A DNA stretch of 32,000 bases from Patescibacteria group bacterium (GTDB lineage: Bacteria; Patescibacteriota; Patescibacteriia; 2-01-FULL-39-33), in the NCBI GenBank assembly GCA_041649575.1, contig JBAZMW010000004.1, positions 1 to 32,000 on the forward strand, in the 5' to 3' direction. A program made the translations under genes and the position numbers. A model generated the notes under the pieces. It was not told the DNA's origin, did not search any database, and saw only the letters and a program-made list of their open reading frames with translations. Shown piece by piece: positions 5,592 through 28,102 of the stretch. The number at the start of each line of letters is the position of its first letter. Position 1 is the first letter of the stretch.

Positions 5592-7838
5592 TTAGCGTCT
5601 CTTCATAAAGCCGAGCTTGCCAGACGGCCTGCCGCGATTGTTGCCATAACCACCGCCGCGGCCGTTAAAATCATTCCTTTTATCATTAGCCGGATTATAA
5701 TTGGGGTCGGCTTTTTTGATTGATAAATTAGTCCGGCCTTGTTCGTCGATTTCTATCACTTTGACCGTCACTTCCTGGCCGATTTTGACCACATCACTGA
5801 CCTTGGCCACTCTTTCCGGCGCCAGTTCGGAGATATGAACCAGGCCCTCTTTGCCCGGCAGAATCTCGACGAAAGCGCCAAAATCCATCAGCCGAGTGAC
5901 TTTGCCGGTATAAATTTCTCCCACTTCAACTTCTTTGACTATATTTTCGATCCATTTAACGGCTCGGGCGACGCATTCGACTTTAAGGCCGGTAACCGCC
6001 ACCAGACCGTCATCATCAATATCAATTTCAACCTCGCAAGCATCAATGATCTCATTGATGATTTTGCCGCCAGTGCCAATAACCTCGCGAATCTTATCTG
6101 GACTAATGCGGATATTAACGATTCGCGGAGCATAGGGCGATAGCTCTGGCCGCGGTGCCGGAATAACCCGGGCTATCTTGTCTAAAATAACTAGTCGCGC
6201 CTCTTTGGCCTGGCTCATGGTTTGCTCGCAAAGCTCGAAACTCAAGCCGCTGGTCTTAGTATCCATTTGAATGGCAGTAATACCGTCTTTAGTGCCGGTA
6301 ATTTTAAAATCCATGCCACCCTCGCCGTCTTCCAAGTCCTGTAAATCGGTAATTATCTTATACTTGTCGTCGCTGCTGGCCAAGCCCATGGCAATACCGG
6401 CCACCGGCTTTTTGATGGGCACGCCGGCATCCAAGAGTGACAAAGTGGAGCCGCAGGTGGAGGCCATAGAGGAAGAGCCATTGGAGCCCATGACCTCGGA
6501 AACCACCAGAATCGTATAAGGAAATTCTTCTTTGGTGGGCAACATTGGCAATAAGGCTTTTTCGGCCAGAGCGCCGTGGCCAATCTCCCGCCGACCAGCG
6601 CCGCGCAGAGGACCGGCTTCACCATAACAATAAGGCGGAGCATTATAATGATGGATGTAAGTCTTTTTGGTGTCGGATTCGGTCATTTCGTCTAAAATTT
6701 GAGCGTCGCCAGGCGCGCCCAAGGTGACCACGCTCAAAACCTGGGTCTCGCCTCGAGCAAACAGGGCACTGCCATGAGTGCGCGGCAACAGGCCGACTTC
6801 AATCTCCAGCGGCCTGATCTCGCCGAGCTGGCGGCCGTCAATTCTTAAATCTTTTTCCAGAATCGCCCGGCTGACCTCGGCTTCCAAGTAACTCTCGAAT
6901 TTATCTTCCACATATTCAATAATTTCCTCATGCTTGCCTTGCCGCTCCAATTCGGTCAAAAACAACTTTAACAATTCCTTGGCCACTTCTTTTCTTTCTC
7001 TTTTGGTGCCTTTGGGCTGATTAAAAAGATATTTTTCCAGTTGCGGCTGAAAAAATTTCTGGGCTTCGGCAAAAGCGGCTTTCTTTTCCGACAAGGAAAT
7101 TTCTTTTTCCTCATTGATTTCCTCCAGTAATTGAGCGACTTCTTTTTTGGCCGACCCAACCTGATCTTTAACTAAATTGACAAAATCCAAAAGCGGCTTG
7201 GCTTGCTCCAGGCCAAACTTGACGGCCGCCAGGATACCGGCTTCGGAAACTTCTTTGGCCTCGGCGTCGATCATCAAAACCTTGCCGTAAGCGACAGAAA
7301 AAACCAATTTGAAATCGGAATTTTTGAGCTGATTTTCACTGGGATTGAGCACCAACTCCCCATTAACCCGGCCAACCATCAGGCCGACCAAAGGGCCGTT
7401 CCAGGGAATATCGGAAACATGCAAAGCCAAAGACGCGGCCGTGATAGCCAAGACATCGGCCGAGTTTTCCTCGTCATAAGACAAAGTGGTGGCAACCACC
7501 TGAACTTCATTTCTTATTTCCTGATTAAACAGCGGACGAATGCCACGGTCGATCATCCGAGAATCTAAAATAGCATTGTCGGTTGGTCGGCCGTCACGCT
7601 TGATAAAACGCGAGCCCTTGATTTTGCCGGCGGCATACATTCTTTCCTGCATTTCCACGGTCAAAGGAAAAAAATCAACGCCCTCGCGCGGTTCTTTGCC
7701 CATTACGGCAGTGGCCAAAACCACGGTGTCTCCATAACGCACCAGGCAGGAGGCATTGGCCTGTTTGGCCATTTTACCGACTTCCACTGTCAGCCGACGG
7801 CCGGCGAAATCCAGCTCAAACTTTTTTTCTCTAGACAT
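5592..7838 (-). CDS. pnp: polyribonucleotide nucleotidyltransferase (PNPase)
   Basis: 748-aa ORF with two RNase PH domains, a KH domain and an S1 domain (GEIYTGKVTRLMDFGAFVEILPGKEGLVHISEL). It follows rpsO, the classic synteny. It has a C-terminal Arg/Gly-rich tail. Confidence 0.95.
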   Translation of the reverse strand: MSREKKFELDFAGRRLTVEVGKMAKQANASCLVRYGDTVVLATAVMGKEPREGVDFFPLTVEMQERMYAAGKIKGSRFIKRDGRPTDNAILDSRMIDRGIRPLFNQEIRNEVQVVATTLSYDEENSADVLAITAASLALHVSDIPWNGPLVGLMVGRVNGELVLNPSENQLKNSDFKLVFSVAYGKVLMIDAEAKEVSEAGILAAVKFGLEQAKPLLDFVNLVKDQVGSAKKEVAQLLEEINEEKEISLSEKKAAFAEAQKFFQPQLEKYLFNQPKGTKRERKEVAKELLKLFLTELERQGKHEEIIEYVEDKFESYLEAEVSRAILEKDLRIDGRQLGEIRPLEIEVGLLPRTHGSALFARGETQVLSVVTLGAPGDAQILDEMTESDTKKTYIHHYNAPPYCYGEAGPLRGAGRREIGHGALAEKALLPMLPTKEEFPYTILVVSEVMGSNGSSSMASTCGSTLSLLDAGVPIKKPVAGIAMGLASSDDKYKIITDLQDLEDGEGGMDFKITGTKDGITAIQMDTKTSGLSFELCEQTMSQAKEARLVILDKIARVIPAPRPELSPYAPRIVNIRISPDKIREVIGTGGKIINEIIDACEVEIDIDDDGLVAVTGLKVECVARAVKWIENIVKEVEVGEIYTGKVTRLMDFGAFVEILPGKEGLVHISELAPERVAKVSDVVKIGQEVTVKVIEIDEQGRTNLSIKKADPNYNPANDKRNDFNGRGGGYGNNRGRPSGKLGFMKRR

Positions 7839-9750: not shown

Positions 9751-9822
9751 GTCCCCGTAGTTCAACGGATAGAACACCAGCCTTCTAAGCTGGATATCGT
9801 GGTTCGATTCCACGCGGGGATA
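9751..9822 (+). tRNA. tRNA-Arg (anticodon TCT)
   Basis: Manual cloverleaf: acceptor GTCCCCG/CGGGGAT, D-arm GTTC..GAAC, anticodon arm CCAGC-CTTCTAA-GCTGG, T-arm CGTGG-TTCGATT-CCACG. CCA is not encoded. Confidence 0.9.
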
Positions 9823-9830
9823 CTGGCCGG

Positions 9831-9902
9831 GTCCTCGTAGTTCAACGGATAGAATGCAGGTTTCCGGAACCTGAGATGCAGGTTCGATTCCTGCCGAGGG
9901 CA
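9831..9902 (+). tRNA. tRNA-Arg (anticodon CCG)
   Basis: Manual cloverleaf: anticodon arm CAGGT-TTCCGGA-ACCTG, T-arm GCAGG-TTCGATT-CCTGC, acceptor GTCCTCG/CGAGGGC. CCA is not encoded. Confidence 0.9.
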
Positions 9903-9916
9903 TAGGAATAATTTAT

Positions 9917-9989
9917 GGTGGCTATGGTGTAGTGGTTAACACAGCGGTTTGTGGTACCGTTAACTCGAGTTCAATTCTCGATAGCCACC
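9917..9989 (+). tRNA. tRNA-His (anticodon GTG) with genomically encoded G-1
   Basis: An extra 5' G lies opposite discriminator C. Acceptor GTGGCTA/TAGCCAC, anticodon arm GCGGT-TTGTGGT-ACCGT, T-arm CGAG-TTCAATT-CTCG. Confidence 0.9.
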
Positions 9990-9997
9990 CCCATAAA

Positions 9998-10025
9998 AAC
10001 ACCCCCTAATCGGGAGGTGTTTTTA
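9998..10025 (+). terminator. intrinsic terminator of the tRNA operon
   Basis: AACACC...GGTGTT hairpin followed by TTTT. Confidence 0.7.
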
Positions 10026-10074: not shown

Positions 10075-11524
10075 ATGGATAATTTCCCCGAAATTGTCAC
10101 CTTCCGCATCACCTCGCGTTGCAGTCAAAACTGCTCTTTTTGCTATGGCCCCAAAAATATTCCCGAGTTAGATTTCTCCGAGGCGCGAAGCATCTTCGCG
10201 CTGCTGGCAAGCAAGGGAGCCAAGGCCATCACTATTACGGGTGGGGAGCCGCTAATCAGAAACGACATTGAAAAAATATTTTCTGAAATAAAAAGCCTCG
10301 GGCTGAAAATTTTTTTTGGACTCCAACGCCGACCTATTTTTCAAACATAACGACGCTATCGACAAATATGTCGATATGCTGGGATTGCCCCTGGACAAGG
10401 TTGATAATAAAAACCAAACGGGCCATAGCAATCCTGAACATATCATAAAAGTCCTCAATTATTATAAAAATCTGCCCCAAGAACGGAAAAGGCCAAAATT
10501 AAAAATTGGGACTGTTGTAACCCGACAAAATATTGACCGGCTCGAAAGTATAGCTTTATTGATAAAAAATTTCGTTATTGACTATTGGAAAATATACCAG
10601 TTTATTCCCAGCGGCGCAGTCGCCAAGGCCAACCAAGCATACCTCCAGATTAACGAGGAGGAATTTTTGAAAGCAGCCGGAGAGATCCTCCGTTCTTACG
10701 GCCGAGATTTAAAGATTATAATTTCTCCAAGGCGCCAAAGAACCAACGCCTACTTTTTGATTAACCCAAGCGGCGATGTCATTATGCCGCAAGACAGGGC
10801 CGGCGCATGTGATGAACTGAATGTTGGAAATATTTTTGACCAAGACATCACCACGAGATGGCAAAGTTGTGTGAATGAAGATAAATATTTGAACAATGCA
10901 ACCGACACTTTTAGTTATCGATGGAACAGCTACCCGATGCCGGAGATCTATAATAAGATATGGCGACTCTCCAGAAAATACAACCAAAAAGGACAACCAT
11001 ACACCGAAAAGCATATCGAATGGCTTATTGGCAAAAGCTTGAGTTTGACAAGGGAAGAAAAAATGGACGAAAAAATTTTCATCCCTTTCGTTTTGCTGCA
11101 TGATGTCGGTTATAGCGCTACCGGCCGAAACAACCCCTTCAATAGACAATCGCGTAAGCATCACATGATGGCCGGCAAACAATTGGCCAAAAAAATTCTA
11201 AGGCAGGTCGATTATCCAGCCGACCTAAGTTCAAAAATTTGCAATTACATCGGAATCCACGATAATTGGGCTTTTGGCGACCACCAGCTTTACCGTCGCA
11301 ACAAACATTTGGGGCTCTTCAATGATTTAGATTTTATTTCTATGTATTCGGATGCCTGTTTCGGCTCCATGATGAAATTTTTAAACAGCGACTCCGGCCA
11401 GCTGCTGGAATATTTGAAAAATAACGAGAAGACGGTTAATCGGCCATTCGTTTGCCAAGCGAGCCGTCGAGTGCTCGAAGAAAGCATTAAAAAAATTAAG
11501 ATTGAATACGCACCTGGCCTTTAA
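10075..11524 (+). CDS. viperin-like radical SAM enzyme fused to a C-terminal HD-domain phosphohydrolase, interrupted by a 1-nt frameshift in a T8 tract
   Basis: ORF 10075-10350 carries the CxxxCxxC cluster (RCSQNCSFCY) and GGEPLI. ORF 10316-11524, in the +1 frame, continues the radical SAM barrel (LDSNADLF, KIGTVVTRQN, YWKIYQFIP, INEEEFL, AYFLINPSGDV). It ends in an HD domain (H...LLHDVGY...HH...IHDNW...D). Removing one T from 10310-10317 gives a single 482-aa reading frame (1449 nt). Confidence 0.75.
10310..10317 (+). repeat. T8 homopolymer at the frameshift point of the radical SAM-HD gene
   Basis: Frame 0 reads GLKIFFGLQRR and then a stop. The +1 frame reads (F)LDSNADLFFKHN. The +1 frame is closed upstream by TGA at 10304-10306, so the shift must occur within 10307-10350. 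Confidence 0.8.
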
Positions 11525-11559: not shown

Positions 11560-12126
11560 ATGTTAGAGACGACTGACGAACAGCTGATTGCCTTATACTT
11601 AAGAGGCCACCAAGAAGCCTTGGAAATCCTAATCAAGCGCTATCTTAACCTTGTTTATGGTGCTGTTTATAGACTGGTCAGTAGTCAAGTGGAGGCGGAG
11701 GATATTACCCAAGAGACATTTATACGAGCCTGGAAAAACTTAAAAAAATTTGACCAACAAAAAAATTTTAGAGTCTGGCTGATGGCTATCGCTAAAAATG
11801 CCGCTTTGGATTATTTAAAGAAGAAAAGAGCCATAAACTTCACCGAATTGGAAAATGTTTTTGACAAAGATAATTTGCTAGGAAACATTGCCGATCCGAC
11901 GCCACTAGCCAGCCAGCTGGCCGAAAATCAAGACACCGCCGATTGGTTGGCCGCAAACTTGGCCCAGCTTACCGCAGAAAATAGTCTGATTTTATCTTGG
12001 CATCACCAAGACGGCTTGACCTTTAAAGAAATATCCCAAAAAATCAATGCGCCTTTAAATACCGTCAAATCCCGTTATCGACGCGCCCTGCTGAAATTAA
12101 AAAAAATTCTAGGCGAACCTCTCTAA
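11560..12126 (+). CDS. ECF-type sigma-70 family RNA polymerase sigma factor
   Basis: 188-aa ORF. Region 2 (DITQETFIRAWKNLKKF) and a region 4 HTH (LTFKEISQKINAPLNTVKSRYRRAL) are recognisable. Confidence 0.85.
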   Translation: MLETTDEQLIALYLRGHQEALEILIKRYLNLVYGAVYRLVSSQVEAEDITQETFIRAWKNLKKFDQQKNFRVWLMAIAKNAALDYLKKKRAINFTELENVFDKDNLLGNIADPTPLASQLAENQDTADWLAANLAQLTAENSLILSWHHQDGLTFKEISQKINAPLNTVKSRYRRALLKLKKILGEPL

Positions 12127-12204
12127 ATTTAAACAAAATTGAAAATATTCTTTTAGCGGATGCACCAAAAAGCATCCGTTATTCGTATTTATTAATAAGC
12201 AACT

Positions 12205-12618
12205 ATGAAAGAAAAACTACCCCAAAAAGAAAATTCACCAGAACCGCTGCTGCCGAGCGAAAAACTTTTTGACAGCATCATGCTCGGTATTGGCCGAGAA
12301 CAAAAACGACAGCTTAGGCGCCGAATATTTTTTTATTCTCTGTGTTTTGTCTGTTCGCTTGTAGCGCTACTACCGGCCTTTCGAGCGGTAAGGGCTGAAA
12401 TTATAAATTCCGGATTAATAGAATTCTTAGCTCTGGCCATTTCCGATTCAAAAATAGTTTTGACCTATTGGAATAATTTTATTTTTGTTGTCCTGGAGGC
12501 TTTGCCGGTGATCAGTCTTGTTGTTTTCTTGGCTGTAATTTTTGTCTTTTTAGAATCTCTCAAGCTACTGGCCAGAGATTTAAAGACATTGCTCTCCCCC
12601 GCTTCAATAACTAATTAA
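12205..12618 (+). CDS. putative anti-sigma factor-like membrane protein
   Basis: 137-aa ORF immediately downstream of the ECF sigma gene, with predicted TM helices. The call rests on position only. Confidence 0.45.
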   Translation: MKEKLPQKENSPEPLLPSEKLFDSIMLGIGREQKRQLRRRIFFYSLCFVCSLVALLPAFRAVRAEIINSGLIEFLALAISDSKIVLTYWNNFIFVVLEALPVISLVVFLAVIFVFLESLKLLARDLKTLLSPASITN

Positions 12619-12622
12619 AAAT

Positions 12623-13120
12623 ATGGATTTCAATAAACTAGTCCAATCAAAAACATTCAGAGGTTTTCTGTACGGCATCGCCGCTTTTATCATTATTCTG
12701 ATCGTCTTTAGGCTGGGTGTGGTTGTCGGTTTTAGAGAGGCCAGCTTTTCTTACCGTTGGGGAGACAATTATCATCGGAATTTTGCCGGACCACAGCAGG
12801 GATTCTTAAACGACTTTAGCGGCCAAAACTTCATTAACGCCCACGGAATAATAGGGCAGATCATCAAAATCGACGACTTGAGCCTTGTAATAAAGGGCCA
12901 GGATAATATAGAAAAAATAGTTTCGCTTAAGGATAATACGCCAATCCAACGTTTCCGAGAGACTATTAAATATGGCGATCTTAAAACCGGTGATTATATC
13001 GTAGTTATCGGAGAACCCAACAAGACCGGCCAGATAGAAGCAAACTTTATTAGAATTTTGCCGCCGCCTAATGCTAACGATTTGAACTTCTTGCCGCCGC
13101 CCCACGCTCCCAAAACCTAA
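12623..13120 (+). CDS. membrane-anchored small beta-domain protein (paralogue of 16857-17330)
   Basis: 165-aa ORF with an N-terminal TM helix. The C-terminal pattern G.II...D.SL.IK...K.V......DL..G..V.V.G..N..G...A..I.I.P..PP is shared with the 16857-17330 product. Confidence 0.6.
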   Translation: MDFNKLVQSKTFRGFLYGIAAFIIILIVFRLGVVVGFREASFSYRWGDNYHRNFAGPQQGFLNDFSGQNFINAHGIIGQIIKIDDLSLVIKGQDNIEKIVSLKDNTPIQRFRETIKYGDLKTGDYIVVIGEPNKTGQIEANFIRILPPPNANDLNFLPPPHAPKT

Positions 13121-13136
13121 ATAATCAAATTATATT

Positions 13137-14903
13137 ATGTCAAAAGTGTTAAAGAAATTTTTTGGGCCTATCGTCAAACATAAGCTGCTCTCTCTTATTG
13201 CCTTGGTAATAATTGTTATCGCCGGTTATTTTGGTTATCAGGCGTTAAAGGGCAAAGACGCTCAAACCAGCTATGTTTCGGCGGCGGCAGAAAAGGGTTC
13301 GATTATCGCTTCTGTTTCGGGCAGCGGCCAAGTTTCTGCCTCTAATCAGGTAGACATAAAAACCAGGGCCTCCGGAGAAGTTTATGCAGTCAATGCAAAA
13401 GAAGGGCAGGAAGTTAAGGCCAACACCACTTTAGTACAACTTGATGCTCGAGAAGCACAAAAATCGATAAGAGACGCTCAGGCCAATCTGGAGTCGGCTC
13501 AAATCGCTTTGGAAAAAATAAAACAGCCGACCGATGAACTTTCTATATTGCAAGCCGAAAATTCTCTAGCCCAAGCCAAAGAAACCAAACAAAATTCCGA
13601 GGACGCTCTGAAAAAAGCCTATGACGATGGTTTTAATACGGTGGCCAATTCTTTTTTGGGGCTGCCAACAATCATGACTGGTCTAAATGATATAATTTAC
13701 GGTCATACCTTTGAAAAGAATCAACAAAATGTTGACTGGTATGTTAATCAAATAAACACCGACGACAAAAGAAACCAGGCCATTGATTATCGTGACAAAA
13801 TTAATAGCTCTTATAGCGAAGCTAACGACAGTTATGATAAAAATCTTGAGGCTTACAAAGCGGCCTCCAGAACCTCTGACAATCAAACCATAGAATCAAT
13901 TATTTCGGAGACCTACGAAACAGTGAAAATCATCGCTGATACAGTAAAAAATGGCCATAATCTTATCGACTTCGTCCGGAATGATTTGACTGAAAAAAAT
14001 ATGAGCGTTTCCGCCACCATCATCGCACATCAAGCCAGCCTGGACTCCTACACGGGCAACACCAATACCTATCTGCTTAATCTTCTTTCTGTCAAAAACA
14101 CCATCCAAACCAACAAACAAAACATAATCAATGCCGACAGATCGATTGCCGAAAAGACCGAGTCGCTGGCCAATTTAGAAGCGGGCGTTGATGCACTGGA
14201 CTTGCACTCCCAGGAATTGAATCTGCAACAAAAAATTAACGCTCTGTCTGATGCTAGAGAAAAATTATCAGATTATTATGTCAGGGCTCCTTTTGACGGC
14301 GTGGTCGCCAGCGTCAACATAAACAAAGGCGACTCGGTTTCCTCTGGCGCTTCGGCGGTAACCATGATTACCAAACAACAAATCGCCAAAATCTCGCTTA
14401 ATGAAGTTGACGTCGCCAAGGTAAAAGTCGGCCAGAAGACAACCTTGACTTTTGACGCGGTCGGCGACCTGACTATTGCCGGCTCGGTGATAAATGTAGA
14501 TCTTATCGGCACGGTGAGTCAGGGGGTTACTAGCTATAACGTTGAAATCGGTTTTGACACCCAAGACGAAAGAATTAAGCCGGGCATGACCGTTCTCGCC
14601 AATATCATCACCGAATCAAAAACCGACGTCTTGTTGATTCCCAGCTCGGCGATTAAAACCCAGGGTGATTCGAGCTACGTCGAAATTTTGGAAAATGGCC
14701 AACCGCTAAAAAAAGAGGTGTCAACGGGATTGGTCGGTGATACTATGACGGAAATTTTAAGCGGCCTGAATGAGAATGATCAAATCATTACCAAAACCAT
14801 CACCTCCAGCCAAAACAATGCCGAAAATTCTAATTCCTCAAGCCGAGCTGCTGGCGGCAATCAACAAAACCAGGATGGCATGCCGCCAATAATGGGTTTT
14901 TAA
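13137..14903 (+). CDS. HlyD/MacA-type periplasmic adaptor (membrane fusion) protein with a long coiled-coil insert
   Basis: 588-aa ORF with an N-terminal TM helix, a lipoyl-like/beta-barrel signature (YVRAPFDGVVASVNINKGDSV) and an extended alpha-hairpin region. It is followed by MacB-type ABC genes. Confidence 0.8.
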   Translation: MSKVLKKFFGPIVKHKLLSLIALVIIVIAGYFGYQALKGKDAQTSYVSAAAEKGSIIASVSGSGQVSASNQVDIKTRASGEVYAVNAKEGQEVKANTTLVQLDAREAQKSIRDAQANLESAQIALEKIKQPTDELSILQAENSLAQAKETKQNSEDALKKAYDDGFNTVANSFLGLPTIMTGLNDIIYGHTFEKNQQNVDWYVNQINTDDKRNQAIDYRDKINSSYSEANDSYDKNLEAYKAASRTSDNQTIESIISETYETVKIIADTVKNGHNLIDFVRNDLTEKNMSVSATIIAHQASLDSYTGNTNTYLLNLLSVKNTIQTNKQNIINADRSIAEKTESLANLEAGVDALDLHSQELNLQQKINALSDAREKLSDYYVRAPFDGVVASVNINKGDSVSSGASAVTMITKQQIAKISLNEVDVAKVKVGQKTTLTFDAVGDLTIAGSVINVDLIGTVSQGVTSYNVEIGFDTQDERIKPGMTVLANIITESKTDVLLIPSSAIKTQGDSSYVEILENGQPLKKEVSTGLVGDTMTEILSGLNENDQIITKTITSSQNNAENSNSSSRAAGGNQQNQDGMPPIMGF

Positions 14904-14909
14904 CTTTTT

Positions 14910-15596
14910 ATGCTTAGATGCGAAAACATTAGCAAAACTTACCTGATGGGTGAAGATAATAATCTCACGGTTTTGAAAAAAGTTAATTTTCAAATCGAGA
15001 AAGGAGAGTTTGTCGCCGTCATCGGGCCGTCTGGCTCGGGCAAATCGACTCTGATGAATATTATAGGAGCCCTGGATCGCCCTTCGACCGGTAAATACTT
15101 TTTGGATGAGGAGGATGTTTTCAGCCTGCCCGATGACAAACTGGCGGAAATCCGTTGCAAAAAAATCGGTTTTGTCTTTCAATCCTTCAACCTTTTGGCA
15201 CGTTCTACTGTTTTAAAAAACGTTATGGTCCCCTTGGTTTATGCCAGAGTGCCAAAAATCAAACGCTGGGAAATGGCAAAAAAAGCGCTTCAGGCCGTTA
15301 ACTTGGAAGAAGAAAGGTGGCAGCATCTTTCTAATCAGCTCTCTGGCGGGCAGATGCAAAGAGTCGCCATCGCTCGTGCTTTAATCAATGATCCAGAATT
15401 AATTTTGGCCGACGAACCAACCGGCAACCTGGACTCTAAAACCGGCGAGGTGGTACTGAAAACATTCAAACAGCTTAATAAAGAATTCCACCATACTATT
15501 ATCCTGATAACTCACGATCATAATGTCGCTGCCCATGCCGATCGGGTGATGGAAATCAAGGATGGCGAGATAATCAGTGACAAAAAAAATAATTAA
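14910..15596 (+). CDS. ABC transporter ATP-binding protein (MacB/LolD type)
   Basis: Walker [10 protein letters not shown], signature LSGGQMQR, Walker [14 protein letters not shown]-loop ITHD. Confidence 0.9.
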
Positions 15597-15604
15597 TTAG
15601 TCTT

Positions 15605-16828
15605 ATGCTCATAACCGACCTGTTCGGGGAAACATTCTTTTCTCTGTTTGCCAATAAGTCGCGATCGGCGTTGACTATCTTGGGAATTATTATCGGCATT
15701 GGCTCGGTGATCGCCATGGTTTCCGTAGGCCAGGGCGCGACTCAAAATATCACTTCAAGAATCGAGTCGCTAGGAACGAATTTATTGGTGGTAATGCCCA
15801 GCTCCCAACGCCGAGCTGGTAATTTAGTCAAGGGCGGCATGGGCGAAGCCACCACCCTGACCACCGACGACGCCCAAGCCATTAAAAATTCCATCGAGGG
15901 CATCAAGGCGATCGCCCCGACGGTGAGCTCGCGCAAACAAGTAACGGCCAAGGGTACCAATACCAATACCAGTATTTATGGCGTCGATGAAAATTATTTT
16001 TCTATCAAAATGATTACCGTCGATTTGGGCTCGCTTTTCAGTGCCAGCCAAATCAATTCCAGCTCTCGTGTGGCCGTCATTGGCCCAACCACCAGAGACG
16101 ATCTGTTCGGAGAGAATACTGACCCGCTCGGCCAAAAAATCCGCATTAACAGCCAAGAATTCACGGTTATCGGAGTCACGGCTTCAAAGGGCGGCAATAG
16201 CGTGGGCAGTTCTGACGATTTAATTTACATTCCTCTAAACATCGCCCAACAATATTTTACCGGCAGTAAATCTTTAAGCAATATTAATGTGGAAGTTGCC
16301 GCCGCCAATCAAATGGATGCGGTGGAGCAAGAAGTCAGCGATTTGCTTTTGGCCAGACATAAAATCACCAACACTGATAACGCCGACTTCCGGATCATGA
16401 ACCAAGCCGACATGCTAAGCGCCATGTCTTCTGTCTCCTCAACTCTGACCTATCTCCTGGGAGCGATCGCCGGTATCTCGCTGATTGTCGGCGGTATCGG
16501 TATTATGAACATGATGCTAACGACTGTTACCGAAAGAACTCGAGAAATCGGCCTAAGAAAATCCTTGGGAGCAAAAAATTCCGATATCAGCAGTCAATTC
16601 TTGGCCGAGTCGGTCGCTTTAACCTTTATCGGCGGCACTATCGGAATTATTGCCGGCTGGGTGGCTTCTTATATTATTAGCGCCTTGGCCAGCATGACAA
16701 CCGTTGTCACTCTTAACTCCATTTTGCTCTCTTTTGGTATTTCGGCTTTAATCGGCATCGTTTTTGGTTACTGGCCGGCACAACGCGCCGCCAAACTTAA
16801 TCCTATTGATGCCCTGCGTTATCAATAA
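15605..16828 (+). CDS. ABC transporter permease, FtsX/MacB family
   Basis: 407-aa ORF with an N-terminal TM helix, a large extracytoplasmic MacB_PCD-like domain and a C-terminal FtsX 3-TM module (ERTREIGLRKSLGA). Confidence 0.9.
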   Translation: MLITDLFGETFFSLFANKSRSALTILGIIIGIGSVIAMVSVGQGATQNITSRIESLGTNLLVVMPSSQRRAGNLVKGGMGEATTLTTDDAQAIKNSIEGIKAIAPTVSSRKQVTAKGTNTNTSIYGVDENYFSIKMITVDLGSLFSASQINSSSRVAVIGPTTRDDLFGENTDPLGQKIRINSQEFTVIGVTASKGGNSVGSSDDLIYIPLNIAQQYFTGSKSLSNINVEVAAANQMDAVEQEVSDLLLARHKITNTDNADFRIMNQADMLSAMSSVSSTLTYLLGAIAGISLIVGGIGIMNMMLTTVTERTREIGLRKSLGAKNSDISSQFLAESVALTFIGGTIGIIAGWVASYIISALASMTTVVTLNSILLSFGISALIGIVFGYWPAQRAAKLNPIDALRYQ

Positions 16829-27765: not shown

Positions 27766-27838
27766 GGGCCAGTAGCTCAGGGGTTAGAGCACCGCTCTTA
27801 TAAAGCGGGGGTCGGTGGTTCAAATCCACCCTGGCCTA
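27766..27838 (+). tRNA. tRNA-Ile with genomically encoded TAT (UAU) anticodon
   Basis: Manual cloverleaf: acceptor GGGCCAG/CTGGCCT, D-arm GCTC-AGGGGTTA-GAGC, anticodon arm CCGCT-CTTATAA-AGCGG, T-arm GGTGG-TTCAAAT-CCACC, discriminator A. The body closely resembles bacterial tRNA-Ile. Confidence 0.85.
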
Positions 27839-27897
27839 CAAAAACAAATTGGAATTAAAAGTTAATTGTTTTTAAAAAAGTAAAGACTGACATTAAA

Positions 27898-28028: not shown

Positions 28029-28102
28029 GGACGGCTAGCTCAGTTGGTTAGAGCACTATCTTGACGTGATAGGGGTCAGAGGTTCGAATCCTCTGCCGTC
28101 CA
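28029..28102 (+). tRNA. tRNA-Val (anticodon GAC)
   Basis: Manual cloverleaf: acceptor GGACGGC/GCCGTCC, anticodon arm CTATC-TTGACGT-GATAG, T-arm AGAGG-TTCGAAT-CCTCT. Confidence 0.9.

Follow-up and report, generated by a model that had tools for sequence, protein, structure and literature searches.

The gene examined here lies at 10075-11524 on the plus strand of contig JBAZMW010000004.1 from a Patescibacteria group bacterium (assembly GCA_041649575.1), within a stretch of 32,000 nucleotides that was analyzed as a whole and that we call the window. In a previous sequence-only reading, the locus was taken for a viperin-like radical S-adenosylmethionine (radical SAM) enzyme fused to an HD phosphohydrolase, a candidate antiviral module. 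Few immune enzymes are common to bacteria, archaea, and animals; viperins belong to this small group, and the chain terminators that they make are natural antivirals. In the deposited sequence, the gene is split into two overlapping open reading frames (ORFs) in different frames, one of 91 amino acids beginning with ATG (10075..10350) and one of 402 amino acids with a TTG start (10316..11524). Public annotation records only the 402-amino-acid piece, as a "hypothetical protein" of a Patescibacteria-group metagenome-assembled genome (MAG). A single protein of 482 amino acids, with a radical SAM and an HD domain, is obtained only after one T is deleted from a T8 homopolymer (10310..10317), where comparison with intact homologues places the frame disruption. 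Intact homologues have T5 to T7 at this position (e.g., AAA ATT TTT TTA GAT, encoding KIFLD), and the frame-corrected junction, which reads ..GLKIFLDSNADLF.., agrees with every homologue. The 482-amino-acid protein described by the sequence-only reading is therefore real after frame correction, but that reading gave little weight to the frameshift, and the window copy is probably inactive. Because the change from T7 to T8 parts the cluster-binding 80 residues from everything that follows, radical SAM activity has probably been lost here, unless the additional T arose in assembly or slippage restores the frame.

In the corrected frame, codons 1 to 80 of the radical SAM domain (10075..10314, frame 1; Pfam Radical_SAM, 56 bits against a cutoff of 29.5) carry the cluster motif FRITSRCSQNCSFCY (CxxxCxxC; C16/C20/C23; 10120-10143) and GGEPL, with the GGEP SAM motif at 10240-10251, both as noticed before. 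Codons 81 to 283 (10316..10924, frame 2) supply the remainder of the barrel and a viperin-like C-terminal extension and include P105/D107, K143-x-G145, W171-K172, Y174-Q175, and Y226. The junction that follows is open, with no stop codon between the domains, and residues 284 to 482 plus the stop codon (10925..11524) encode an HD-superfamily domain of all-alpha fold whose ligand set is complete (H313...H342-D343 [11099-11104]...H363...H395-D396...D417). Read-through from the radical SAM enzyme into an HD domain, as originally proposed, thus holds for the corrected gene.

The corrected protein aligns end to end with 19 intact metagenomic proteins of 473-514 amino acids (37-61% identity; E-values of 1e-102 to 1e-199), a similarity far above chance, and sequence conservation extends through both halves. 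The intact fusion proteins comprise P0002-P0017, P0022, and P0165, with P0002 at 61% identity, and because the window copy is broken, these are the copies worth expressing. The database survey suggested by the sequence-only reading, run with a profile and exhaustively over 1.84 billion representatives, returned only four fusion clusters at 50% identity (P0010, P0016, P0022, and P0165), and a pattern scan among GTDB species representatives found six family loci. The genomic cases come from Berkelbacteria, Buchananbacteria, and the MAG of the window, and every case that could be traced is from Patescibacteria. The radical SAM-HD fusion is therefore a real architecture, conserved although rare. 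It was not found in the literature searched, in line with the earlier remark that no described viperin-HD fusion was known; reported viperin fusions are with a kinase, an E3 ligase, a triphosphatase/cyclase, or a reverse transcriptase, and HD is not among them.

Two close relatives of the window gene are also damaged. The closest genomic relative, a Buchananbacteria copy at 61% identity (CAIOLF010000046.1; loci L012/L016, match 6001-7063), is a pseudogene in which residues 1-64 and 190-476 are left in different frames and about 125 codons of the radical SAM core have been deleted; its HD half persists as a 286-amino-acid ORF (P0018). A third decayed copy (locus L039, 735-965; 68% identity) retains only codons 1 to ~80, and its remnant ends ...GLIF-stop at the exact KIFLD site of the window frameshift, followed by unrelated sequence and a hairpin. 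These three independent lesions (window, L012, and L039) argue for dispensability. For the window locus itself, we consider it fairly probable that one of three things is true: the gene is a dead pseudogene, the T8 run was introduced in assembly and the real gene is whole, or the run is a contingency or slippage site with low-level or switchable expression. The position of the frameshift in a homopolymer and the decay of the two relatives favor this set of explanations, and, judging from the sequence, the KIFLD frame would be regained if tRNA-Phe slipped by +1 on U_UUU_UUU_G or through slippage in transcription. However, the 402 downstream codons are otherwise clean and preserve all conserved residues, and the lesion is therefore either recent or artefactual (an assembly error).

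The radical SAM half most resembles viperins by profile. C16/C20/C23 and G56-G57-E58-P59 are invariant in 20 fusion sequences and in 73/73 family members. The six RSAD2-like blocks picked out in the sequence-only reading came out in the same alignment when HMMER was run against 6Q2P or hhalign against a viperin profile. Among NCBIfam models, viperin (NF038283) was the top match with 85.8 bits, set against an equivalog cutoff of 180 bits, and was followed by W-cofactor maturase (53 bits) and MoaA (50 bits). The top PADLOC match was the prokaryotic viperin (pVip), with 98.6 bits for the window protein. The viperin models span positions 3-277 of 281, whereas the other radical SAM matches in NCBIfam cover only the N-terminal ~200 residues. 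By hhalign, the family scored 215 against viperin (E = 9e-31, 228 columns) and 140 against MoaA, and viperin scored 146 against MoaA.

The fold points the same way. The AlphaFold2 model of the 482-amino-acid protein has two domains, with a predicted local distance difference test (pLDDT) score of 90 and a predicted template modeling score of 0.86. Its best fold match in the PDB was mouse viperin with CTP (6Q2P; E = 3e-12, target template modeling [TM] score of 0.75, root mean square deviation of 3.3), over 292 aligned columns that cover the whole 291-residue chain. Other radical SAM folds had lower target TM scores (SkfB, 0.55; MoaA, 0.49). In the model, a partial (beta-alpha)6 barrel is closed by the C-terminal extension, and the order of secondary structure elements after beta6 is as in viperin.

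MoaA, the usual viperin outgroup, is a radical SAM enzyme that acts on a nucleoside triphosphate (NTP), and its N-terminal ~200 residues are similar to those of the fusion. However, PF06463, the MoaA C-terminal domain with the second [4Fe-4S] cluster, was absent from the Pfam scan, and the MoaA model TIGR02666 scored 50 bits against a cutoff of 284 bits. The SPASM domain PF13186 was also absent from the Pfam scan, SPASM-family NCBIfam matches reached at most 53 bits against cutoffs of 265-650, and no Mob_synth_C domain, second cluster, or SPASM/twitch domain was found in the Pfam and NCBIfam scans. Given the missing auxiliary domains, the low scores, and the partial coverage, placement with MoaA, SPASM enzymes, QueE, or NrdG was rejected; the best placement lies outside all four of the subfamilies that the sequence-only reading had named as possible alternatives, and the HD ligands whose loss it had allowed for are present.

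Resemblance to viperins does not amount to membership. A hidden Markov model (HMM) built for calibration from the 14 viperins tabulated by Shomar et al. gave 257 and 224 bits for P0091 and P0105, two independent sequences with the behavior of true pVips, versus 92.6 bits for the window protein; on the same model, the 73-member family scored 54-104 bits, MoaA scored 66-75 bits, and SPASM enzymes scored 55-97 bits. With the PADLOC pVip models, P0091 and P0105 scored 240-294 bits. Branching with known viperins is the operational criterion for a pVip (Shomar et al.; Culbertson & Levin). In a neighbor-joining tree with Kimura distances and 300 bootstraps, in which distances were saturated, viperins were monophyletic in 299/300 replicates and MoaA in 300/300, whereas viperins grouped with the family in 0/300 and viperins, family, and intermediates together in 33/300.

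The substrate pocket differs as well. We mapped residues between 16 viperins and the 73 family members, with viperin invariance computed in this analysis. Kept from viperin are the cluster and SAM motifs (CxxxCxxC and GGEP), N158-G159 within (S/T)NG, D182 of SxDS, K220 (as R/K), N229, W246-K247, Q250, and Y302, the last in a common strand motif, (S/A)Y(I/F)(M/L)(I/L)(D/N)PxG, that aligns between the two groups; the R194 equivalent is kept in 69/73 family members, but in the subclade of the window T115 stands at this position. Other viperin residues are exchanged for different conserved ones (N77 for T, H79 for R, K120 for A, S180 for P, N222 for G, and R245 for I/Y/L), and the C-terminal RGG is replaced by A or is variable. 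In all, of the residues that never vary among validated viperins, roughly half are exchanged for family-specific ones. In mouse viperin, N77, H79, K120, S180, D182, R194, K220, N222, R245, K247, Y302, and the C-terminal RGG are the positions that we take to contact the nucleotide (6Q2P). The hhalign alignment ends at AYFLINPSGDV (residue ~238), and the beta8-loop and C-terminal region are not alignable with viperin; the beta8 loop of viperins holds the nucleobase-stabilizing positions Asn/Cys314 and Lys319 (Shomar et al.). In the family, R11, at the H79 position, is invariant in the fusions, and K50 is near-invariant. Together with the viperin residues that are kept, these two are consistent with an anionic or phosphate-bearing substrate. 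R11, K50, P105, G145, and R222 count among the residues specific to the family. The clade also has a signature of its own: FR(I/V)TS..C..C..CYGP, (I/L)P(I/L)D, (R/K)IGTVV, and WK(I/L)YQFIP.

The radical SAM half is thus best described as a distinct sister clade with a remodeled pocket and not as a viperin. The label viperin-like stands insofar as viperins are the closest characterized family by profile and fold, but it fails as a statement of membership on scores and residues, and the tree, with its saturated distances, gave it no support. Because the pVip models of the PADLOC type nonetheless match this non-viperin clade at E-values of ~1e-23 to 1e-31, in spite of the failed stricter viperin criteria, automated defense annotation may over-call it.

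In the subclade of the window (P0002-P0004), G-H stands in place of a conserved Y-R (viperin G193-R194) at residues 112-116 (10409-10423), which lie in a loop; nowhere else does the confidence of the model drop so low (pLDDT < 50). The swap may have altered the substrate site in this subclade specifically.

The HD half was modeled alone with a pLDDT of 94.6, and its best fold matches in the PDB were all HD hydrolases (2PQ7, 3DJB, YpgQ 5IHY, HDDC2, and PgpH; TM scores of 0.55-0.66). Sequence searches of the PDB with this half were marginal (profile versus PDB, E = 0.09), and several stand-alone HD relatives carry a precomputed PF01966 match. The six-residue pattern H..HD..H..H..D is diagnostic of dinuclear HD phosphohydrolases such as the Ap4A hydrolase YqeK, while HD phosphodiesterases have an additional His (HH) (PMC8177086). 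In the fusion homologues, H313, H342-D343, H363, H395-D396, and D417 are invariant (in both a 20-sequence alignment and an alignment of 16 fusions), as are the corresponding ligands in 20 more distant YqeK-like relatives, whereas the additional phosphodiesterase-type His is not conserved. Among 17 stand-alone close relatives, H313 is replaced by Gln in 8. The half also has family-specific invariant residues (W316, W398, F415, and L418). We therefore read the HD half as a divergent HD metallo-phosphohydrolase with a dinuclear-type motif, as predicted from its fold and ligands. It shares the all-alpha fold and the length (~190-200 residues) of YpgQ, 2PQ7, and 3DJB (TM scores of 0.58-0.66) and, with YqeK, the H..HD..D ligands plus two extra His residues, its distant relatives being labeled YqeK-like by JGI. 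However, its sequence similarity to these small HD phosphohydrolases is marginal, and the four family-specific residues set it apart from them. In proteins of 430-524 amino acids, the same HD-like domain, with Gln for its first His, precedes a second, canonical PF01966 HD domain, and it is also found inside proteins of 1,133-1,157 amino acids (P0077, P0079, P0214, and P0248 for the two forms).

Outside the fusion, the radical SAM clade has links to nucleotides and to conflict systems. Wider-clade proteins score ~180-240 bits on the family profile and 58-94 bits on the viperin HMM. Some are fused to TIR (P0181), caspase Peptidase_C14 (P0198), WD40 (P0193), or a receiver plus PRTase-CE (P0261), architectures typical of biological-conflict systems; the TIR domain matches ThsB and the PRTase domain matches retron III-A effector models, and partner domains in the clade also match PDC-S07. 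Winged helix-turn-helix domains of the MarR/AsnC type are fused in the clade too (P0179), likewise an architecture typical of such systems. On the E. coli IncF plasmid NZ_CP045714.1 (locus L044, 6001-7998), an overlapping operon encodes a radical SAM protein, a deoxynucleoside kinase, and a NudI nucleoside triphosphatase that matches the PADLOC candidate PDC-S07. The radical SAM protein of this operon scores 147 bits on the family HMM versus 74 bits on the viperin HMM and has the FRITS, IPID, and YQFxP signatures. Only 2 of 5,426 complete E. coli genomes carry this operon, which looks like an undescribed defense candidate; its neighbors are two toxin-antitoxin pairs (RelE/Phd and Doc/Phd), a recombinase, and colicin genes. 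In an uncultured Gammaproteobacteria MAG (locus L014, 649-2306), the stop codon of a family member scoring 353 bits on the family HMM overlaps the start of a thymidylate kinase gene. The kinase/Nudix operon, the overlap with tmk, and the conflict fusions tie the clade to nucleotides as well as to conflict, and a phosphohydrolase partner recurs in it in two forms, HD and Nudix.

Within its own genomes, the fusion gene behaves as a solo accessory gene. Among 40 non-redundant flanking genes from 24 loci, there was no conserved neighbor, and no family occurred more than three times; the one kinase among the 40 is a thymidylate kinase, probably of a housekeeping tmk-holB pair. No nucleotide kinase was found near the gene in the window. 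The fusion family thus does not show the frequent linkage to a nucleotide kinase that is typical of viperins.

Taken together, these results lead us to a preferred, if still tentative, explanation: the fusion would be a nucleotide-modifying radical SAM enzyme of a viperin sister clade, coupled in cis to a dinuclear-type HD phosphohydrolase in an accessory or conflict module that has been inactivated in the window. The locus is a copy, broken by a frameshift, of a two-domain module that occupies a single gene, is rare, and in the cases traced is restricted to Patescibacteria. In an intact copy, the radical SAM domain would hold a [4Fe-4S] cluster together with SAM and produce a 5'-deoxyadenosyl radical, with which it would modify a small phosphorylated substrate; a nucleotide is the most probable one. 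The HD domain would most likely act on the substrate or the product of the radical SAM domain and cleave off phosphate(s) or pyrophosphate. A modified nucleoside or nucleotide would result, for use in conflict (antiviral or antimicrobial) or in another accessory role. The analysis shows the identities of the domains, their conserved ligands, the separation from viperins, the rarity, the lack of any constant partner, and the decay of the gene; that the substrate is a nucleotide, which reaction comes first, and what role the module has are inferred.

A precedent for such a pair is found in oxetanocin-A synthesis, in which OxsB (radical SAM) and OxsA (HD phosphohydrolase) jointly make a nucleoside analogue (PMC9204698, PMC8177086). 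OxsB remodels the sugar of a nucleotide and OxsA strips phosphates from the modified nucleotide to yield an antiviral and antibacterial nucleoside analogue, and the logic proposed for the fusion is the same. The HD domain of the fusion may act as OxsA does beside OxsB, and the Nudix NTPase could plausibly do likewise in the E. coli plasmid operon. However, OxsB is cobalamin-dependent and belongs to another subfamily, OxsA and OxsB are separate proteins, and OxsA does not appear among the 50 best fold matches to the HD half, so the comparison is one of analogy and not homology. The plasmid operon is similar in that a radical SAM protein of the same non-viperin clade is paired with a nucleotide phosphohydrolase; it differs in having a Nudix enzyme instead of HD, a kinase, three separate genes, and 29% identity. 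The validated anti-phage system Ophion also combines a radical SAM enzyme with a metal phosphoesterase (OpnA with the PHP phosphoesterase OpnB and the PRTase OpnC), and OpnA is described as related to but distinct from pVips (bioRxiv 10.1101/2025.09.30.679545). However, its partners are PHP and PRTase proteins, and OpnA scores 13-14 bits on the family and viperin HMMs, for which it was rejected as a closer relative.

Several observations weigh against the explanation that we prefer. Mean identity of the family is 18.8% to viperins, 19.2% to MoaA, and 21.4% to SPASM enzymes; it is no higher to viperins than to the others, and the case for viperin-like chemistry therefore comes from profile and fold. 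The exchange of N77, H79, K120, S180, N222, R245, and RGG means that the substrate could be other than an NTP. For the HD half, Pfam PF01966 gave 16.7 bits (E = 0.009), under its gathering score of 22, and the Foldseek matches, at a probability of ~1.0, had weak E-values of 0.05-0.8. In the gammaproteobacterial MAG, tmk followed by a holB-like gene is the usual housekeeping arrangement. No defense genes or defense-island context were seen in the window, and no relative was found on viral contigs (IMG/VR), for which a viral origin was rejected. Stand-alone halves exist in Patescibacteria, Nanoarchaeota, and Woesearchaeota as radical SAM proteins of ~280 amino acids (P0023-P0075) and HD proteins of ~195 amino acids (P0121-P0137). 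In a Rosetta-stone test, however, the two genes were not neighbors in the candidate phyla radiation (CPR) or DPANN, and both sit amid housekeeping genes, so that neither a conserved two-enzyme pathway nor a defense-island setting is favored.

A bolder version of the argument is possible but doubtful. It holds that the whole FRITS/YQFxP clade consists of unrecognized nucleotide-modifying radical SAM immune effectors parallel to viperins, with a product other than 3'-deoxy-3',4'-didehydro-NTP (ddhNTP) and with HD or Nudix as an integral second step. The clade so defined takes in the fusion, the ~280-amino-acid CPR/DPANN proteins, the E. coli operon, and the TIR, caspase, WD40, and PRTase forms. 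The HD or Nudix step would mature the product to an active nucleoside or monophosphate or would protect the producer.

Alternatively, the fusion might do housekeeping work in the nucleotide or RNA metabolism of CPR/DPANN organisms (such as salvage, repair, or the modification of tRNAs or cofactors), with the HD domain as a nucleotidase and no relation to conflict. The surroundings of the stand-alone relatives, which lie amid RFC/FEN1/PolB, DnaG/RpoD, ribosomal proteins, tRNA methyltransferases, Cbf5, and HisRS, would fit such an enzyme, as would the overlap of the L014 copy with tmk-holB, the place of the window copy after a tRNA cluster, and the lack of defense islands among the loci seen. 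We nevertheless regard it as unlikely: the family is rare and patchy (six loci in GTDB species representatives and four fusion clusters in 1.84e9 representatives), it has no conserved neighbor, three of the closest copies are decayed, which is unexpected for an essential function, and relatives outside the family are built into TIR, caspase, and PRTase architectures or lie on a plasmid, flanked by toxin-antitoxin modules.

That the enzyme is a true pVip, converting CTP, UTP, or GTP to the ddhNTP while the HD domain dephosphorylates this product or depletes NTPs, is less likely again. The top matches in NCBIfam and PADLOC, the viperin fold including the C-terminal extension, the aligned strand motif, and the kept equivalents of Y302, K220, K247, and D182 speak for it. 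Set against these are a score less than half the family cutoff, the 224-257 bits (viperin HMM) and 240-294 bits (PADLOC) of true pVips versus 93 and 99, the bipartition of viperins with the family that never appeared in the bootstraps, the pocket exchanges, each conserved in the family, with loss of RGG, the unalignable beta8-loop and C-terminal region, and the near absence of kinases. On score calibration and residue map, and with no support from the tree with its saturated distances, we rejected a true pVip; the suggestion that this enzyme makes ddh-nucleotides was likewise not supported. A non-nucleotide radical SAM enzyme (a maturase of ribosomally synthesized and posttranslationally modified peptides, a cofactor maturase, or a glycyl-radical activase) with a superficial resemblance to viperin is very improbable: although SkfB, SuiB, and PqqE reach query-normalized Foldseek TM scores of 0.36-0.44 versus 0.47 for viperin, NCBIfam W-cofactor maturase, NirJ, and StsB match at 44-53 bits, and mean identity to SPASM enzymes is 21%, those matches stop within the N-terminal ~200 residues, the auxiliary domains and second cluster are missing from the scans, no conserved precursor peptide or partner gene lies nearby, and the HD fusion and the kinase and Nudix partners in the clade point to nucleotides.

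If our preferred explanation of a viperin sister clade acting on nucleotides is right, a remodeled pocket in a clade repeatedly coupled to phosphohydrolases (HD and Nudix), to kinases, and to classic immune domains (TIR, caspase, and PRTase) would suggest radical chemistry on nucleotides that is new, and perhaps new natural antiviral nucleosides.

Around the gene, the window holds the following features. A plus-strand tRNA cluster predicted by ARAGORN (tRNA-Arg TCT, tRNA-Arg CCG, and tRNA-His GTG; 9751..9993) is followed by an intrinsic-terminator-like hairpin, also on the plus strand (9994..10025; RNA fold and pattern scan; -16.5 kcal/mol, z = -4.68), that was equaled in folding by 0/200 shuffles. 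Its flanking A-run and U-run allow a terminator reading in either direction. The description of the gene as standing alone after a tRNA terminator, with no kinase, was thus confirmed. Downstream (11560-16828), the next gene encodes an extracytoplasmic function (ECF)-type sigma factor (11560-12126). It is followed by genes for two small proteins without a Pfam match (12205-13120), the first of which could be an anti-sigma factor, and then by an HlyD-like gene (13137-14903) and an ABC ATPase gene (14910-15596). Upstream, the minus strand carries genes for a nitroreductase, ribosomal protein S15, and PNPase. Farther along the window, a tRNA-Ile with anticodon TAT lies at 27766-27839, and tRNA-Val (GAC) adjoins it at 28029-28102. 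Reading of AUA by a TAT tRNA-Ile is uncommon in bacteria, most of which use a lysidine-modified CAU tRNA.

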